This document shows positions 4,207-20,289 of a stretch of DNA of 64,000 bases, piece by piece (the stretch's first letter is position 1; each line of letters starts with the position of its first letter). The translations under genes were made by a program, and so were the position numbers. Below the pieces are notes generated by a model, which was not told the origin of the DNA, did not search any database, and saw nothing but the letters and a program-made list of their open reading frames with translations. The stretch comes from a virus (taxonomy: Duplodnaviria; Caudoviricetes): the IMG/VR virus record IMGVR_UViG_3300021255_000123, positions 21,435 through 85,434 of that record. The stretch is one strand, 5' to 3'.

Positions 4207-4817
4207 AGTAGTGCTGCTTTAAGTTCGGTTCTCGGAGTCTTTCTCTCGTAGATGGCCTCGCCATTGGAGAATTGAGCCACCTTGACCAACTCTTCTTCCG
4301 CACATGTCCGGCAAATCTTCTCGCAATCCTCGACGATACTGTCGAGCCACAGTTCGAGTTTTTTTTCCAAACCCTTTCTGTGCATTGTTGCAAGACCCTT
4401 GTTCACGGAATGGTTCCCGTCTTTGTATTTGTCCTCTACGAAAGAGAGTGCAAGAGAGCCGGTGTCTCCTTGTTTGAGCTCGTATCCGTCATAGAAGTTG
4501 TCCGAAAGTTCTATGTTGTAGTCTATGGTGGCGCCTTCATAATATGCAGAGCGGAGCCCAAGCATGACTTTGGCATAATATATTTCGCCACCATACCGCA
4601 TTTCGTAGTTTCGTTCTGTGGCGAAATGAAGTTGGTAGTCCCTTGCATAACTGCGCTCCCATTCATCGGTATCGCTCCATGCCTTGTTTTCGGCCTTTGC
4701 CACTTCCTGTATGTCTTCACGGATGGAATCCAAATCAATGTATTCCTCAGGTTCTCTATTGATGCCTACACAATGGTAGTCTTTTGCGTTCTTTTTTGAA
4801 AAGTTGTGTGTGCTCAT
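4203..4817 (-). CDS. Conserved-type phage hypothetical protein (RSAYYEGA motif)
   Basis: 204-aa ORF with A-rich leader; the RSxYYEGA word recurs in phage hypotheticals (recalled). Confidence 0.75.
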   Translation of the reverse strand: MSTHNFSKKNAKDYHCVGINREPEEYIDLDSIREDIQEVAKAENKAWSDTDEWERSYARDYQLHFATERNYEMRYGGEIYYAKVMLGLRSAYYEGATIDYNIELSDNFYDGYELKQGDTGSLALSFVEDKYKDGNHSVNKGLATMHRKGLEKKLELWLDSIVEDCEKICRTCAEEELVKVAQFSNGEAIYERKTPRTELKAALL

Positions 4818-4913: not shown

Positions 4914-5372
4914 CTATTTGTTCTCTCCCTCGGCTTCGGGGTTCTCCACCACGGCATACTTGCCTTTTGTGATGCCTTTCACGAGGTCTTCGAGTTTCTG
5001 GCTTGACCACCAATCGTAGTCGTATCCGATTTGCAGGATGATGACACTTCCGATGATGCTGTCGGTGAACGGTGCGCCCTCTTCGCTGTTCTTGCGGTTG
5101 TGGCTGTCAACCCAAGAACAGACCATGTTGATGGCCTCAACGTCGCTCTTGCTCTTCGGCAGGAGGACATAGGCGTGGTTGTCATCGCTGCCAGTGTCGA
5201 AGATACCATACTCGGTGCCCTCGTTGATGACACAGTTGCGCATCCGTCCGAAGATGACGCCTTTGGCAGACTTTTCGTATGTCTGGCACTCGGCCTCGTT
5301 GGTGAACTCGGTCCCGTCGCAAGCGACATAGACGGTGGTGTAGGAAATGTTTTCTCTCTGTTCTTTTTTCAT
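4914..5372 (-). CDS. Hypothetical protein (YVACDGTEFTNEAECQTYE motif)
   Basis: 152-aa ORF; the N-terminal Y.A.DGT.F....EC..YE word is common in Bacteroidota phage hypotheticals. Confidence 0.8.
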   Translation of the reverse strand: MKKEQRENISYTTVYVACDGTEFTNEAECQTYEKSAKGVIFGRMRNCVINEGTEYGIFDTGSDDNHAYVLLPKSKSDVEAINMVCSWVDSHNRKNSEEGAPFTDSIIGSVIILQIGYDYDWWSSQKLEDLVKGITKGKYAVVENPEAEGENK

Positions 5373-5427: not shown

Positions 5428-5922
5428 TTAGCTCTGCATTATTCCTGCAAGCAGGACCAGTCCGAGGGCTGCATCCGCTTGTGCAGGAGTCTCAATCATT
5501 CCCACGGTGTCGGCGACCTTCTTCTTGGTGTCGTCATTGAGGGCGTTCCAGCCGGCCTCGAACATATTGGTGAAGCGCTCACACTTCTCGTGTTCCTCCT
5601 TAGCCTTGCCCTCAACGAGGATGTTGCGGAGAGGTGTGCTGAGGTGTTCGGGAAGTTTGGCGCAGGCGTTCTGTCGGCTGAGGTCGTAGTCGAAGCGCTG
5701 CCACGGGCGGTTGAGCCATGAGGACTTGCCCGTAACCGTGTACAGGGTGCGATACTCGGCACCTTCACCGCACGTTACCTCAATCTCGGTGCGCTCGGTG
5801 TGGCTGCCCGTGGTGTAGCAGTAGCGGGTGTACTCGTACACTCTCGCTGAATACTTTTTGTTGTCCGTACCGATGAAATCGTGGTACGTTACATTCTCGT
5901 TGTAAGGTTTTGTAGAAGCCAT
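5428..5922 (-). CDS. Hypothetical early protein
   Basis: 164-aa ORF with AACCTTAAA leader. Confidence 0.8.
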   Translation of the reverse strand: MASTKPYNENVTYHDFIGTDNKKYSARVYEYTRYCYTTGSHTERTEIEVTCGEGAEYRTLYTVTGKSSWLNRPWQRFDYDLSRQNACAKLPEHLSTPLRNILVEGKAKEEHEKCERFTNMFEAGWNALNDDTKKKVADTVGMIETPAQADAALGLVLLAGIMQS

Positions 5923-8739: not shown

Positions 8740-9330
8740 TAGTTAGTTATTGGCTCAATTAATGCAATTGCGTTATTTGCTTTCCTATTTTGCACATATT
8801 GCAGAATGTGTTGTGTATGTTTTCCACATTGCGCACACTCTAATTGTCAGTGTAATATTGTCCGGTTGCATAGTTGTATATGCAGCGCCATGAATATGTG
8901 TGTACACTATATATAGCAAGTGCCAAACCTTAACACAATATACAACGTATTGTGCTTTCGTTGTGTCAATACTTACATAACTGGCAACTTGTTTTGTCAT
9001 GCAGTATATTGACAATGTTTTATTGCTATATAGTGAGTTATACAATTGTAAGTGCAATTTGCGTTGTATCATACAAACAATTGTATAACTGACAATTTGC
9101 AATGTTTTGTTGTGTCTGTCTGTTTCAACAAACATAACTTACACTTTTATATATTTTGTTGGCTGGTTTGTTTTCTGTTATTGCCGTTAGTGTATTGGCA
9201 GTGCAAAATATACAATGTATATCGTTATTTTCGTTTAATATACACAACGTTTCCCGTTTCTTATCCTCTCATGCCTTTCGGTATCATGAATGCCAATGTG
9301 AGTTGCAAAAACTCTAACAACGTTTGTTTC
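8740..9330 (-). other. AT-rich multi-hairpin non-coding leader (possible ncRNA or ssDNA structure)
   Basis: Perfect 14-bp stem 9036-9049/9077-9090; nested stems 8905-8919/9023-9035, 8965-8973/9003-9013 and about 8934-8954. Confidence 0.45.
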
Positions 9331-13109: not shown

Positions 13110-13895
13110 ATGGAAACAGGGAATAAAATAAACGAGGAATGGAGGCCGGTTGTCGGCTATGAAGGCATTTATGAGGTGTCTGAATATGGTGATATTGCGT
13201 CGTTGAATTACAACAAAACAGGAGTCAGGAATATTCGTAAGCCAAAAATAACAAAAGACGGGTATCTTGAAATAGCATTATGCAAAGACTCAAAAATGAA
13301 ACATGTTCGTGTTCATAGGGTTGTTGCAATGGCTTTTATTCCAAACCCAAACAATTTACCTCAGATAAATCACAAAGACGAGAATAAGTTAAATAATCAT
13401 GTTGAAAATCTTGAATGGTGTGATTTGAAGTACAATGTGAATTATGGTACGGCAATAGAAAGGCGGTCAAAGAAGATAAGTATTCCTGTTATGCAGATGT
13501 CGTTAGACGGCGATATTATTTCTGAATATGAGTCCGTCAGTGAAGCCGCAAGAAAAGTTGGGTTAAGAACAGGCGACATCGTAAATGTCTGTAATGGGAA
13601 GAATGTTTCTGCTCATGGATATAAGTGGAGATATAAAGACGATTGCTTATTCAGAAAAGCACAAACTCGTAGAAAGAAGGTAGTGGATAAATATACAAGT
13701 AATGGCATTATATGTAGTGTTGACAATATAAAACCTGTTTTGCAATATACACTTGATGGAATTTTTATGGAAGAACATACTAGTATCAGAGCCGCCGAGA
13801 GAAAAACAGGGATAAGACACGATTCGATATGGCAATGTTGTCACAACAAGGTCAATAAAACGCATGGATATATATTCAAATTCAAAGAAATATGA
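13110..13895 (+). mobile_element. Free-standing NUMOD4-HNH-NUMOD1x2 homing endonuclease
   Basis: EEWRPVVGYEGIYEVSEYG (NUMOD4); VHRVVAMAF...INHKDENKLNNHVENLEW (HNH); two NUMOD1 repeats; AT-rich relative to flanks. Confidence 0.92.
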
Positions 13896-14254
13896 TAACA
13901 CAAGATTCTACAGGCAAATGTCTCCTCTCTTTTGAAAACGAGGCAACTATAAGGAGAATACCACTAGAGAGACGTGGTATGACAAAAAAAGGGATAGAAT
14001 GGGTCCTTGGAAGTTGTTTGGTCGAGGTATCTGATAATGAGCAGAATTGCTCGGCCCAACTGTTTTTGGTAACCTTTGAGCCAGAGCTGATTGAGCAACT
14101 GAACGTGATTGGTGTAGGGAAAAATGTCAAGATACGGTGGCACATTGATTGTCGTGAAAGATACGATTCATACTCTGTATCGGCAATCCTAGACGAGATA
14201 GGCTTGATGACCGATGCTGAGAACTTCCTGATTGGCAAAGGTAAAAAGAAATGA
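13892..14254 (+). CDS. DUF3127-like OB-fold protein
   Basis: ER.G....G.EW.....EV......TF..E.IEQ....VG..V...HIDCRE matches the DUF3127 pattern as recalled. Confidence 0.65.
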   Translation: MITQDSTGKCLLSFENEATIRRIPLERRGMTKKGIEWVLGSCLVEVSDNEQNCSAQLFLVTFEPELIEQLNVIGVGKNVKIRWHIDCRERYDSYSVSAILDEIGLMTDAENFLIGKGKKK

Positions 14255-14646
14255 GCGAGACCTACATAGACTTGGAGCCATACGAGGACCGGATTATCGC
14301 ACAGCGGAGCCGCACGGCGATAATCTTCCTGTACCCGTTCATCCGGGAGGCGTACAGGTACGGCATGAGGGTGCAGACCCGCGACGGTCGCGTAGTCAAA
14401 AAGGTCCGCGTAGGAGGCGCAAACGGAGCCGCTGTGGTGGTAGGCATCCTAGACGGCGAGGAATTGCGCTGGGATGCCGCAGGACGCTTTCTGGGGCCGT
14501 ATCAGGACGACCCGAGAGACTTGTTTGTGCCGGAACGCTACATGTACAAGGACTGGAGGGAGAATATCGGCCTGTCGAACAGCGAGTGGGCCGTAACCTT
14601 CGGGAAGCCTCATCCGGGAGTCAAGATGCCGAAAAAAGATAATTAA
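14251..14646 (+). CDS. Hypothetical protein (VQTRDGRVV motif)
   Basis: 131-aa ORF; ATGA overlap. Confidence 0.75.
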   Translation: MSETYIDLEPYEDRIIAQRSRTAIIFLYPFIREAYRYGMRVQTRDGRVVKKVRVGGANGAAVVVGILDGEELRWDAAGRFLGPYQDDPRDLFVPERYMYKDWRENIGLSNSEWAVTFGKPHPGVKMPKKDN

Positions 14647-14657
14647 CCGTTTCTAAT

Positions 14658-14864
14658 ATGACCGACGAGGAATTTGACAACACAACATTCCACAAAGGAG
14701 ACAAGATTGAAGTGTGCCACTACTTCAAGACCGAAGTTGAAGATGTAGAATATGTGAATATAATTGACAGATATATAAATAATTACAAACCACAACAAAT
14801 CTCAAAATATATAAGTCATGCCAAGAAAGAAACCAGAAGAACCAATCATCGTCAATCCGAATGA
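14658..14864 (+). CDS. Small hypothetical protein
   Basis: 68-aa ORF. Confidence 0.6.
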   Translation: MTDEEFDNTTFHKGDKIEVCHYFKTEVEDVEYVNIIDRYINNYKPQQISKYISHAKKETRRTNHRQSE

Positions 14865-15063
14865 ACCGCTCCGCAAGTGCTACGACTGCGTGCATTGGCA
14901 CATGTGCAAGGATGGCAACAACAGTGACGGCGCTGTCGATTTCTCGTCCGGCAGCTGCGACCACAACGGTTACTCCAAGGTGCCGCCGCTGTTCACATGC
15001 CCCGGATGGGCCTCAGGAAGCGGCGAAATTGCCGATACATTGAGCCTACTGATGTCGAATTAG
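14818..15063 (+). CDS. Small Cys-rich hypothetical protein (CxxC..W..C...C...C)
   Basis: 81-aa ORF; possible zinc binder. Confidence 0.65.
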   Translation: MPRKKPEEPIIVNPNEPLRKCYDCVHWHMCKDGNNSDGAVDFSSGSCDHNGYSKVPPLFTCPGWASGSGEIADTLSLLMSN

Positions 15064-15138
15064 CCGGCATCCGTGCCGAAAGATTGAAAAATTTTCTCGC
15101 ACAAAATCAGCAAAGTACGAAATATTTTCAAAAATTAT

Positions 15139-15169
15139 TTTGCCATATCGGAAATAGTTTGTACTTTTG
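15139..15169 (+). promoter_or_regulatory. Bacteroidota promoter for the tRNA/ncRNA cluster
   Basis: TTTG near 15139-15142 and TACTTTTG at 15162-15169. Confidence 0.8.
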
Positions 15170-15192
15170 CATCGCTTTTGAGACGGAAACGG

Positions 15193-15205
15193 AAAGTTCT
15201 TTCAC
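15193..15205 (+). promoter_or_regulatory. boxA-like site (AAAGTTCTTTCAC)
   Basis: 12/13 identical to the site at 9414-9426 and in the same promoter-proximal position. Confidence 0.55.
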
Positions 15206-15260
15206 TCGAAAGGGTAATATGGCCAGAAGAACGGAGTACGAGAAGTTAAGAAAGCAACTT

Positions 15261-15351
15261 CGCTGAGTAGCTCAGGTATTAGAGCGGTTTGGTAAGTCCG
15301 GAAACGGTGAGTCCAAGCAGGTCATTGGTGAGAAGCCAATCTCGGCGACTA
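15261..15351 (+). ncRNA. tRNA-like RNA with an expanded 22-nt anticodon loop
   Basis: Acceptor CGCTGAG/CTCGGCG; D-stem GCTC/GAGC; anticodon stem GTTTG/CAAGC around a 22-nt loop containing CCG-GAAA-CGG; T-stem ATTGG/CCAAT with non-canonical loop TGAGAAG; 3' ACTA. Confidence 0.7.
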
Positions 15352-15373
15352 GAATCAAAAGAGATTCAGAGAT

Positions 15374-15450
15374 TGTGGGGTCACTGGAGACGGTTCCAGC
15401 CTTGGCTCATAACCAAGTCCACGTCGGTTCGATTCCGACCCCCGCTACCA
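15374..15450 (+). tRNA. tRNA-Met (CAT)
   Basis: Anticodon stem CTTGG/CCAAG with loop CTCATAA; T-arm GTCGG-TTCGATT-CCGAC; encoded ACCA; 1:72 mismatch. Confidence 0.85.
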
Positions 15451-15559
15451 AGCCAAAAGAAGGCAACACAATATAAGCTGAATGTCGGGAAAGTCAGCGA
15501 GGATTGTAAGACAGATTAGGTTCGGTTTCACCAGTCAAGTAAACCATCTTCAACCCCTG

Positions 15560-15590
15560 CAACCCCGACTACGCTGGGGTTGACTTTTTT
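15560..15590 (+). terminator. Rho-independent terminator-like hairpin
   Basis: CAACCCC/GGGGTTG followed by a T run; an alternative 5' arm TCAACCCC lies at 15550-15557. Confidence 0.6.
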
Positions 15591-15591
15591 A

Positions 15592-15860
15592 TATTGGCTG
15601 GTGTTCCACAAGACGAGTAAAGAGAACCCACCCAAAGGAACACGAGAGCCGTAGGGGAGCCAGTACAACACGGCAGCGTAAAGGGAAAGCGAGAGTTGAG
15701 GTGATTCCGCGTACACGACGATGATTGTCGAATAAACACCTCTGCGATTAGCAAACATCGGCGAAATCGCTTGTAAAGTCCGGGACTGACAGGTTCAGCA
15801 GAAGACAATACAAAGTTTTGTTCGCCGGTTGACGGTAAGGGAAACTTTGGTCTGAACCGA
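15592..15860 (+). ncRNA. Unidentified multi-domain structured RNA directly upstream of an HNH gene
   Basis: Stems 15592-99/15658-65, 15601-07/15637-43, 15698-703/15737-42, 15744-49/15765-70, 15792-98/15852-58 and 15811-18/15842-49; no credible ORF. Confidence 0.6.
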
Positions 15861-15900
15861 AACGTTCTTGGTTAGCAGTAAGATAAAATAGATATATACT

Positions 15901-16464
15901 ATGACGATGGATAAAGAAATATGGAAAGATATACATAATTACGAGGGACGGTATCAAGTTAGTAATTATGGGAATGTACGTTCCTTAAATCATAATCAGA
16001 AAGGTGTTGTAAAAGAAATAAAAAAGAGAATTTTACGAGGTTATTATTATGTTAGGTTGCAAAAGAACGGACAAAAAGAAGAGTTTAAGATACACAGATT
16101 AGTATATGCAGCATTTGTAGGAGAATTGCCAGAATGTACATTAAAAGGTGACGGAAATAAAATACTGGTTGTAAACCACAAGGATGAAAATAAACTAAAT
16201 AACCGTGCGGATAATTTGGAACTTTTATCGCATACTCAAAACATAAACTATGGGGAAAATTCAGTTGTAAGGAGTGTGTATCAGTATAGTTTAGACGGTG
16301 TATTGATAAAAACTTGGCGTTCTATGACGGAGGCAGAGTCTGCCGGATTCAGCAAACATGCCATCTGTTTATGCTGTACAGGAAGAATTAAAACACACAA
16401 AGGGTATAAGTGGGTGTATGCTGACAATAAACAAAATCGAAAAGGAAGAAAAAAGACAATATAA
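15901..16464 (+). mobile_element. Free-standing NUMOD4-HNH-NUMOD1 homing endonuclease
   Basis: EIWKDIHNYEGRYQVSNYGNVRS; IHRLV...VNHKDENKLNNRADNLE; C-terminal NUMOD1; AT-rich. Confidence 0.92.
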
Positions 16465-16655
16465 ACCAATAAAACAGACAATTATGAGTAAAATTCTGAA
16501 AATCTCAGCCGGCGTCCGTTATGATGAGGATGCCGGGTCTCTTAACCACCTCAGCACTGGTTGTGCAGGATAAAAAGAGCTTATGGATGGAATGATGAAA
16601 AAATCTCTTCATGTTTTGAACAAAACTTATTGAAAACCATTATAAAACACAAAAT

Positions 16656-16865
16656 ATGAATACATTTCAAGGTGAACGTACAAAACCGTTATCCAAAGGA
16701 AAAGTGAAATATACAAATGATTCCTGCGTCGGAATTGAGTTTGCTCCTATTGACGAAAGTGAAACACACGGCAGGATTCCAATCTTGTCCATCATTATGA
16801 CCGTTTCAGTTGAGGATGCTGTAGAAATCGCGAAAGATATTTTGAAAAGATATGAGCAACAATAG
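16656..16865 (+). CDS. Small hypothetical protein
   Basis: 69-aa ORF with A-rich leader. Confidence 0.65.
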   Translation: MNTFQGERTKPLSKGKVKYTNDSCVGIEFAPIDESETHGRIPILSIIMTVSVEDAVEIAKDILKRYEQQ

Positions 16866-18708: not shown

Positions 18709-20289
18709 TTATTCGTATTTGTTGTTTTTATTCGATTTGGAGGCGTATTTTGCATTGATGGCGCCCGTCTTCTCCAGTTTGTCGAGTTCCTTCTGGGCCA
18801 ACTCTTCCTGCTCACGCTGGATGCGCTCGACCTCATCCGGGCGACTGATGGTGTTGGCCTCGACAGCGGTCTTCTGGGACAGGATGCCGCTGGTCTTCAT
18901 GGTAGAGAGCATCTGGTTGTACTCGGCCTCGGAGAACGGCTGCCAGATGTCGAAGCTGGCGTTGATTCTCATCTTGTCAAACTCAGTGATGGCGTCTGGC
19001 TTGTAGAACGGGTCGCTGGGGTCTTTGTTCACCAGCTCGACTGCGAGGCCGCGCTTGAACAGGCGAACCATCTTGTCGGCGACGTTCTGCCACTCGACAA
19101 TGCCGTTTTTTGCAGTCTGAATATCCAGACTCTGAGTCATTTGGACTGCCACACCTGATGTATCACTTGAAGTGTGGATGTCTTTCGGCAGGATGAAGGT
19201 CGTGCCACAGGCAATCTGGATTTGGGAGAAAATTTGGTCCAGAGTGTTGATGGAGTTCTGCGGCGAGGGCGGGTCGAGGAACTTGGCGTCGCCCTTACCC
19301 TCGTAGCTGGTGTCGTTTAGGACGATATTGCCGGCGAGTTTCTTTGCTTTTTGGTCGATACGGCCCTTGACGTATAGGAGGCCCCAGCCAAACTTGTTTT
19401 GGAGTACCTTGAAGATATTGTCGAGTCTTTCGTAGCTCTCGATGAGGGTCTGGCCGTTGTCCCAAGCGACCTTGGTGCGCTTGGTGATGAGGGGAATCTC
19501 GCCGAACGGGTGTGGGATGACCTGCAACTCGTAGTCGCCGTTGTCGGACACATACCGGATGCGGTACATATTGTAATCGTCCCAGCAGTCGATTAGTTCC
19601 TCGCCGTCGGACGATGTGTAGTACACCACCTCCAGCATACGGTCTCCATTCATGTCGTTGTGGGAGCAGATGACATAGCCGTCCTCGTAGCTGATGAGCC
19701 TCGACTTGATTTCGCCGTGGCGGTCGATGTAGTACAACAGGCCGGCGTCGCCGAATGACTTGGCGGTGGCCACCATTTTGACTTTCATGCCGTCCTGATT
19801 GCGGAGGTCCCAGAAGTGCTTGAATGTAACAAAGTCCTCTTGAACACTCTCTGCCGGTTTCTTGTCGGATAAGGTAAATTTCATTGGCAGACAGGCCATG
19901 TGGAGAGTCTGTTTCTCCATAATGCACTGCTGGAACGGCTGTGCGGCCTTGACGAACTTGATTTCTACCACACCACCGTTCTCTGTGCGGACGCAGATGC
20001 TCGGAATGTTCTCGTCGAACAGGACATCGTGCATGTTGGGGTCAAGTTCGGCCATGTACCTGTCTTGGCTGATGACCTCTTTCTTGATGCACGACTGTCT
20101 GGCGGCGATTTTCGAGCCGAGGTGGACCGGCTTCTGGTTCTTGTAGTTTTGCTGGATTTTGCCTCCACGGGTAAACGGCTTGCGCCTGAGGAGTTTCTCA
20201 CGGTCGGTGAGTAACGCCTTTACATCGTCGGCTGTCTTTGCAAGCAGCTCGTCGATTTGCTCCTGAGTTGTTTTATTGCTGGTTTCCAT
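18709..20289 (-). CDS. Portal protein (SPP1 gp6-like)
   Basis: 526 aa, next to TerL; FGEIPL, acidic/coiled C-terminus, MSQKTA-like wing motif (LSQKTA). Confidence 0.85.
   Translation of the reverse strand: METSNKTTQEQIDELLAKTADDVKALLTDREKLLRRKPFTRGGKIQQNYKNQKPVHLGSKIAARQSCIKKEVISQDRYMAELDPNMHDVLFDENIPSICVRTENGGVVEIKFVKAAQPFQQCIMEKQTLHMACLPMKFTLSDKKPAESVQEDFVTFKHFWDLRNQDGMKVKMVATAKSFGDAGLLYYIDRHGEIKSRLISYEDGYVICSHNDMNGDRMLEVVYYTSSDGEELIDCWDDYNMYRIRYVSDNGDYELQVIPHPFGEIPLITKRTKVAWDNGQTLIESYERLDNIFKVLQNKFGWGLLYVKGRIDQKAKKLAGNIVLNDTSYEGKGDAKFLDPPSPQNSINTLDQIFSQIQIACGTTFILPKDIHTSSDTSGVAVQMTQSLDIQTAKNGIVEWQNVADKMVRLFKRGLAVELVNKDPSDPFYKPDAITEFDKMRINASFDIWQPFSEAEYNQMLSTMKTSGILSQKTAVEANTISRPDEVERIQREQEELAQKELDKLEKTGAINAKYASKSNKNNKYE

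Follow-up and report, generated by a model that had tools for sequence, protein, structure and literature searches.

A candidate structured RNA module beside the tRNA genes of a phage genome

The window analysed here is a 64,000-nt stretch of an 85,434 bp virus genome with direct terminal repeats. Between the terminator of its tRNA genes and an HNH endonuclease gene lies a gene-sized non-coding phage module, called A hereafter (+ strand, 15592-15883, 292 nt), whose limits are those of a block exchanged between related phages. Judging from comparisons of sequences, we lean towards the view that this module encodes a folded + strand RNA of about 290 nt, which would belong to the tRNA operon region and not to the HNH gene. 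The evidence for the fold, taken overall, is moderate: the helices have changed in sequence and kept their pairing in two diverged homologues, and the folding energy of the whole module is ordinary.

Limits, coding status and relatives of the module

An earlier note had flagged the stretch 15592-15900 as lying between a terminator and the start of an HNH gene, which is correct: the terminator occupies 15560-15590 and the HNH open reading frame begins at 15901. Every frame of the stretch contains all three types of stop codon, neither strand has a usable ORF, and at three places within it there are 1-nt insertions or deletions between close relatives; for these reasons we consider it non-coding on both strands. 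The idea of a decayed gene is unsupported, since a tblastx comparison of the module with all the related loci that were collected returns only the module's own homologues.

The relatives were found through two proteins of 131 aa (14251-14646) and 81 aa (14818-15063). In three of them (L092, L093 and L105), positions 15426-15883 are kept at 93-97.5% identity and the HNH gene is absent; the identity ends at 15883/15884, which sets the 3' limit of the module. Two others (L118 and L120) are 98-99% identical to the window through the terminator and switch exactly at 15592 to an unrelated 228-nt module, B, which is also present in L086 (5885-6113), L117, L090, L126 and L127. In L118, L120, L086 and L117, different modules stand in place of the whole of module A. 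A third module, C, of about 470 nt (L099:7715-8195 and L116:7470-7975), starts with the boxA-like word GTTCTTTGAAC, contains GAGCCGTAGGGAATCC and has a T-arm-like hairpin, GGTTCAAACCC, at its end. When the three modules are compared with one another, no significant similarity is found, only a weak local likeness around GAGCCGTAGGG.

Two diverged homologues of module A occupy the same genomic place, L088:5165-5487 and L125:4655-4961; nhmmer matches them to the 3' half of the module with E-values of 2.6e-4 and 3.9e-5, respectively, and matches their 5' parts to each other with an E-value of 7.9e-9. Both sit after tRNA or tRNA-like genes and a T-rich terminator. In the three lineages a series of words is found in constant order: TAGGGG, GAG, GATAG, CGAAAA, AGYAAGG, GCTTGT, GTCC, GAC, GCA..AAG.CAA, GAACC and GCAGT.

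These comparisons bear on a reading to which we give a low probability, namely that module A is a stretch of spacer DNA without any role as RNA, left over from mosaic recombination in a hot spot and conserved by kinship, its hairpins arising by chance or acting at the level of DNA. The hypervariability of the locus, where sister phages carry the unrelated modules B and C, is in its favor, but L088 and L125 are still homologous at identities down to about 64%, with the module in the same position and the words in the same order, which a mere leftover does not readily account for.

Module A is known from three lineages and about seven contigs, so it appears to be rare, and the sequences place it so far in one small phage group. 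The phage genome contains no second copy. A blastn search of the INPHARED phages matches the 5' end of the HNH gene only, and pattern scans of IMG/VR with five words taken from the module or from beside it give nothing beyond the record itself, or chance matches in a coding gene. The GTDB genomes contain neither a relative of the neighboring protein nor a match to the patterns, hence no prophage copies, and a scan of JGI metagenomes yields five loci, all of which carry module B or are too short.

The tRNA operon upstream of the module

The elements around the module are all on the + strand, in the order promoter, boxA-like word, tRNA-like gene, tRNA-Met, trailer, terminator, module and HNH ORF. 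The promoter box, TACTTTTG (15162-15169), is of the Bacteroidota -7 type, with a TTTG about 19 nt upstream, and it is the sole perfect copy between 14600 and 17300 of TAnnTTTG, which we take to be the Bacteroidota-type promoter consensus. The boxA-like word AAAGTTCTTTCAC (15193-15205), 3' of the promoter, is by its sequence a candidate antitermination site.

The first gene (15261-15349) is an odd tRNA-like gene with an enlarged anticodon arm, and a relative, L086, has a normal tRNA-Arg (ACG) in its place (4974-5050). The acceptor, D and T arms of the two match, and the tRNA-like gene has a longer insert where the tRNA-Arg has its anticodon arm. Another version of the tRNA-like gene, to which ARAGORN assigns a 2-base anticodon, is found in L092, L093, L105 and L116. 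No tRNA is called in L088, where the promoter is followed (4920-5010) by a mini-helix made up of a stem resembling an acceptor (ACCGAG/CTCGGT), a T-arm (CCTGCG TTCGACC CGCAGG) and a CCA end.

The second gene is tRNA-Met (CAT) (15374-15450), and the module starts 141 nt 3' of it. It is followed by a trailer of about 110 nt (15451-15559) that begins with AAGCCAAAAGAAGGCAAC in most relatives, as read by eye; this start word is present whether the phage carries module A, B or C. After AAGCCAAAAGAAGGCAAC come two hairpins, and their sequences vary among the relatives: the stems are GCTGA/TCAGC in the window, ACGAG/CTCGT in L086 (trailer 5744-5860), GACGAA/TTCGTC in L099 (7618-7715) and GCAGA/TCTGC in L125 (about 4540-4640). 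On this comparison, the trailer looks like a conserved structured 3' trailer or a small RNA that ends at the terminator. The latter (15560-15590) is an intrinsic terminator with an 8-bp stem and a T tract, whose folding z-score is -3.3.

The HNH gene is a separate cassette

The gene that follows the module (15901-16464, + strand) codes for a free-standing, I-HmuI-like HNH homing endonuclease of 187 aa. The earlier description of the protein as a DNA-binding HNH of the NUMOD type is borne out by Pfam, which detects NUMOD4, HNH_3 and I-HmuI NUMOD-like domains (E-values of 3.8e-13, 4.1e-12 and 3e-3), and the ORF belongs to PHROG 59, 'HNH endonuclease' (E 7e-38).

The HNH cassette can be delimited by comparison with the relatives: identity stops at 15883/15884 and the homology with L092 restarts at 16458, so that the cassette is 15884-16457. 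It consists of the ORF and an AT-rich leader of 17 nt (15884-15900) devoid of a promoter of its own, and little else; L092 has 309 nt in its place. Past 15883, L092, L093 and L105 share another sequence and then diverge into cassettes that differ, the 309 nt in L092, a TnpB/OrfB_IS605 gene in L093 and a run of small genes in L105. The HNH gene is thus present in one and absent from others of a set of otherwise collinear genomes, which is the pattern by which homing endonucleases are recognized.

According to the earlier note, the RNA could be a partner of the nuclease, or a degenerate intron or ribozyme carrying the HNH gene in a loop. The reading in which the RNA belongs to the HNH gene, either as a guide or partner (as the omega RNA, or HEARO, does for IscB) or as what is left of an HNH-carrying intron, is suggested by their adjacency, the ATG lying 17 nt past the end of the module, but this adjacency is seen in one genome only. 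The module occurs without the HNH gene in L092, L093 and L105, and its diverged versions in L088 and L125 have no adjoining HNH gene either; conversely, none of the 80 loci that carry HNH homologues (at most 46% identity) has a module-like sequence. Besides, the HNH gene lies outside the module, beyond the 15883/15884 junction, there is no exon context, no Rfam intron or HEARO model matches at E ≤ 10, and the 187-aa NUMOD4/HNH_3 protein has no RuvC domain. Module and nuclease are therefore not linked, and both suggestions fail; we consider this reading extremely improbable. The HNH gene is an unrelated later insertion, a separate selfish element and not the partner of the module, and since the nuclease is an ordinary free-standing homing endonuclease, there is no case for RNA guidance here.

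Mobile genes are found at several other places in these phages. The TnpB/OrfB_IS605 gene of L093 (5276-6502) occupies the cassette site directly after module A, and another one follows module B in L090 (7466-8899); the 3' end of the latter contains a match to RAGATH-18 (8753-8822, 33 bits, E 0.014, below the gathering threshold), placed where an omega RNA is expected. A different HNH gene (147 aa, L086:5219-5662) lies between the tRNA-Arg and tRNA-Met genes of L086, and more HNH genes are present at other intergenic sites of the phage group, for instance at 13110-13895 of the window, a site where L086 has none. This phage lineage is heavily colonized by free-standing HNH genes.

The sequence 3' of the HNH gene is a junction between two lineages. 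Positions 16458-16525 are the leader and, from the ATG at 16485 on, the initial codons of a 148-aa gene which is truncated here and whole in L092, L105 and L118; positions 16526-16634 are 97-98% identical to the block that lies directly 3' of module B in L086, L117 and L120. The two are fused at a shared 9-nt word, GAGGATGCC. The earlier note had mentioned further hairpins after the HNH gene. The one at 16509-16536 does exist (z -3.0), but its arms straddle the junction of these two unrelated blocks, and it is a recombination scar at GAGGATGCC and not a part of the RNA.

What follows the module also bears on the main rival of our reading, according to which the module is a cis-acting leader, that is, a folded 5' region that controls the downstream genes, such as a processing site or an element of processive antitermination. 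The next ORF begins 17 nt after the module in the window and about 11 nt after it in L125, no promoter box separates the module from the next gene, and boxA-like words are found both downstream of the tRNA promoter and at the beginning of module C (L099, L116), all of which would suit a leader. Against this, the downstream genes are unrelated among the phages (HNH, TnpB, a 69-aa gene, a 214-aa gene), and in L088 no + strand gene follows the module, only A/G-rich sequence, a bidirectional terminator and convergent late genes. Because the genes that follow differ from phage to phage and there is none in L088, we hold that the module is unlikely to be a leader.

The module does not belong to a known RNA family

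A full match to a known family was named beforehand as an outcome that would speak against a new RNA, and no such match was found. A cmscan search of Rfam 15 with gathering thresholds gives no match in the stretch; when the E-value is relaxed to 10 and permissive filters are used, on 14900-16800 (1.9 kb) and on 15445-15905 (461 nt), the stretch still matches none of the families. RNase P, group I and group II introns, HEARO, ROOL, GOLLD and RAGATH are ruled out on this basis. Searching six related loci with Rfam (E ≤ 1) finds neither ROOL nor GOLLD; over the window and these loci together, the only matches are tRNAs, a terminator look-alike and, beside a TnpB, RAGATH-18.

Short words reminiscent of RNase P RNA and of domain V of group II introns are indeed present in the module, as had been pointed out, but no family model matches. 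In the P4 helix of RNase P RNA, a AAAGUCCGG strand near the 5' end pairs with a CCGGCUU-type strand near the 3' end. In the module, the word AAAGTCCGGG (15775-15784) has no complementary partner of the CCCGG type, the ACAGAACCC-like word is 5' of AAAGTCCGGG, which is the wrong order, and L088 and L125 do not keep the RNase P-like word (they have GACGTCCTCC and TGAGTCCGAA); the models of bacterial RNase P RNA (RF00010, RF00011 and their relatives) do not match at E ≤ 10. As for domain V, there is no match to Intron_gpII, and GAGCCGT...ACGGC closes a loop of 17 nt with no upper helix.

Three further candidates were discarded. A group I intron with an HNH ORF would interrupt a gene, and here there is no interrupted gene, no Rfam match, and the HNH gene is outside the module. 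The omega RNA of IscB (HEARO) has no model match, the protein contains NUMOD4 and HNH_3 only, and the two are not linked. ROOL and GOLLD give no match at the gathering threshold or at E ≤ 10; the module is found in the context that is typical of them, next to tRNA genes in a phage, but context alone does not confer membership.

Folding energy

The stems that had been seen in the flagged stretch exist, and their coordinates were confirmed on the window. The stretch as a whole does not fold beyond chance: the z-score of the minimum free energy is -0.74 for the + strand of 15592-15900, 24 of 100 shuffled sequences folding as well, -0.85 for the module proper (15592-15883) and 0.01 for the L088 homologue. 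Scanning in segments of 100 nt, only 15775-15899 stands out (z -2.5 to -2.6), and 15575-15775 is close to 0. This ordinary energy is what spacer DNA would give, and module B, which folds worse than its shuffles (z +1.7), can be counted on the same side.

The 3' part of the module behaves differently from the whole. The 3' domain has folding z-scores of -3.7 and -4.2, and the hairpin between AAGACAA and GAACC is stable in the three lineages despite its differing sequence (z -4.2 in the window, -4.9 in L088 and -2.1 in L125); such stability in three lineages is difficult to reconcile with spacer DNA.

Helices and compensatory changes

The helices of the window were compared with their counterparts in the two diverged homologues. 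P1b (15602-07/15637-42) is TGTTCC/GGAACA in the window, TGTGTG/TGCACA in L125 and GGAGTG/TGCTCC in L088, in register in a structure-blind alignment. P2 (15648-52/15670-74), whose loop opens with the conserved TAGGGG, is GCCGT/ACGGC, CCGTA/TACGG and CGGCA/TGCCG in the same order of genomes. P3 (15684-87/15705-08), threaded by eye, is GGAA/TTCC, TGGCA/TGCCA and GGGAC/GTCCC, and the alignment to a covariance model places L088 likewise. The loop of P3 (GAGGTG) can pair with a downstream CACCTC (15698-703/15737-42) to form a pseudoknot, which as threaded is GAGGT/ACCTC in the window, GACGG/CCGTC in L125 and GCGAG/CTCGC in L088; its 3' strand comes after CGAAAA, and the offsets from the conserved words are the same in L125 and L088. 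A further stem is found at 15716-19/15727-30. P6 (15744-48/15766-70) is GCGAT/ATCGC, GGTTG/CAACC and GGCGG/CCGTT.

In the 3' domain (15792-15858), H2 (GGTTCAG/CTGAACC, 15792-98/15852-58) surrounds the long hairpin H1 and a small inner hairpin; the domain was delineated from z-scores and homologues. H1 (15811-18/15842-49) is CAAAGTTT/AAACTTTG in the window. It is kept in L088 (CAAAGTCT/AGACTTTG) with one compensatory pair, and L125 has a different long hairpin there (TCACCAAC/GTTGGAGA). H2 is absent from L088, and neither H2 nor the outer helix proposed by RNAalifold is kept in all the lineages. We also considered that the H1 strands could contain a promoter (TTTG ... AAACTTTG), and dropped this reading because L088 and L125 do not keep the sequence.

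When the window, L125 and L088 are threaded on six helices, one of which is the pseudoknot, 199 of 204 cells are canonical (97.5%) and 27 of 34 pairs have changed on both sides, in an alignment which leans towards structure since it was fitted by eye. Sliding the 3' partner by 1-3 nt lowers the fraction of canonical cells to 38-47% and leaves 2-8 pairs changed on both sides.

An alignment that ignores structure is less open to this bias. The structure-blind global alignment of L125 and L088 lets P1b, P2 and the pseudoknot emerge, each with 6 bp and two or three double changes. Four covarying stems of at least 6 bp are observed, versus 0.2-0.3 in column shuffles (full or within blocks of 25 columns), and none of 500 shuffles reaches four. 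A more severe control is provided by similarly diverged coding segments from these phages: 15% of them reach four such stems, and in broader counts of covariation 15-23% of them equal the module. This common background of short covarying stems is a further point for spacer DNA. The count of stems of at least 6 bp with at least two double changes, a statistic that was picked after the data were seen, is three in the module; among the 44 coding controls it averages 0.3 and never exceeds two. A control with parallel stems shows that 4-bp stems with G-U pairs are pure noise. Among the coding controls, columns 338-676 of the alignment of the portal gene (window 18709-20289, L088:6025-7626 and L090:9072-10637) are unusually rich in covarying stems in each of the three pairwise comparisons, which may reflect local mRNA structure or repeats.

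The automatic procedures are less favorable. On MAFFT alignments, RNAalifold returns no supporting covariation term (z -1.3 to -1.65) and the automatic window test gives nothing; the reason is that MAFFT sets the helix strands of the diverged homologues out of register. The covariance model R1, built on the close group, finds neither L125 nor L088, even with the filters off. Within the close group, our own reading of the alignment shows four substitutions inside helices, all four of which are compatible with wobble pairing.

Several helices contain G-U pairs and the reverse complement scores lower, both of which point to an RNA of the + strand. G-U pairs suit a single-stranded RNA and not DNA, so they argue against the module being spacer, and so does the fact that the helices change in sequence while the pairing is kept, with the pseudoknot in strict register.

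The earlier proposal of a new class of non-coding RNA is therefore partly upheld: the module has no Rfam match, is conserved and non-coding, and shows compensatory changes in diverged homologues, but the energy of the module as a whole is ordinary.

Proposed fold, expression and role

The folded + strand RNA that we favor would begin with the 5' hairpin P1b, followed by P2 with its conserved TAGGGG loop and by P3, the loop of which would pair downstream as an H-type pseudoknot; it would be completed by two small hairpins, P5 and P6, and by a 3' domain organized around the long hairpin H1.

On the simplest model, it would be expressed from the promoter at 15162 by transcription that reads through the terminator, possibly with help from the boxA-like word, and it would share its transcript with the tRNAs, an arrangement already proposed for ROOL and GOLLD. 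The terminator that stands between this promoter and the module speaks against such a model. As to the HNH gene, it took the place of 309 nt directly beyond the module (15884-16457) and left the module itself intact; it probably rides on the same read-through transcript.

Regarding the role of the RNA, our guess is that it is a stable molecule which, during infection, acts in trans on translation in the host, on tRNA metabolism or on defense. In its most developed form, which we hold possible but would not call probable, the module would be the founding member of a new class, pseudoknotted phage RNAs of about 300 nt that share transcripts with tRNA or tRNA-like genes and exert their effect on the host in trans, a smaller counterpart of ROOL and GOLLD in Bacteroidota phages. 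Their targets would be translation, tRNA processing or an RNA-sensing defense, and modules B and C would be alternative RNAs performing the same task and swapped by recombination.

Comparison with known systems

ROOL and GOLLD appear, by analogy, to be the nearest known kind of RNA. Like the RNA proposed here, they are non-coding RNAs with multiple helices and pseudoknots, next to tRNA genes in phages or prophages; unlike it, they are large (about 580 nt for ROOL and more for GOLLD, compared to about 290 nt), and there is no match in sequence or structure. ROOL and GOLLD often adjoin tRNA genes in phages and prophages, and it has been suggested that they are transcribed together with the tRNAs; ROOL was originally discovered in metagenomes of the cow rumen (PMC5737381). 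The phage of the module has likewise been recovered from rumen and gut assemblies.

Other systems resemble the locus in part. I-HmuI shares with the HNH ORF its NUMOD4, HNH_3 and I-HmuI NUMOD-like domains, but it is located inside a group I intron, whereas the HNH gene described here is a free-standing cassette made of the ORF and its 17-nt leader. HEARO and IscB have in common with the locus a candidate structured RNA that immediately precedes an ORF containing an HNH domain; however, IscB has a RuvC domain and is over twice the size of this protein, and RNA and ORF are not found together in the relatives of the phage.

The tRNA cluster of phage T4 encodes small RNAs that are stable, together with SegB, a free-standing homing endonuclease. 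It resembles the arrangement proposed here in that it has extra stable RNAs and has been invaded by a free-standing homing endonuclease gene, but the RNAs are different and SegB is a GIY-YIG enzyme, versus HNH here.

If both the fold and the transcript are real, a compact pseudoknotted RNA would join ROOL and GOLLD among the few phage RNAs that accompany tRNA genes. Its source would be phages with Bacteroidota-type hosts, for which RNAs of this sort have seldom been described. The presence of three interchangeable non-coding modules at one site would then amount to a natural experiment on the role of these RNAs.
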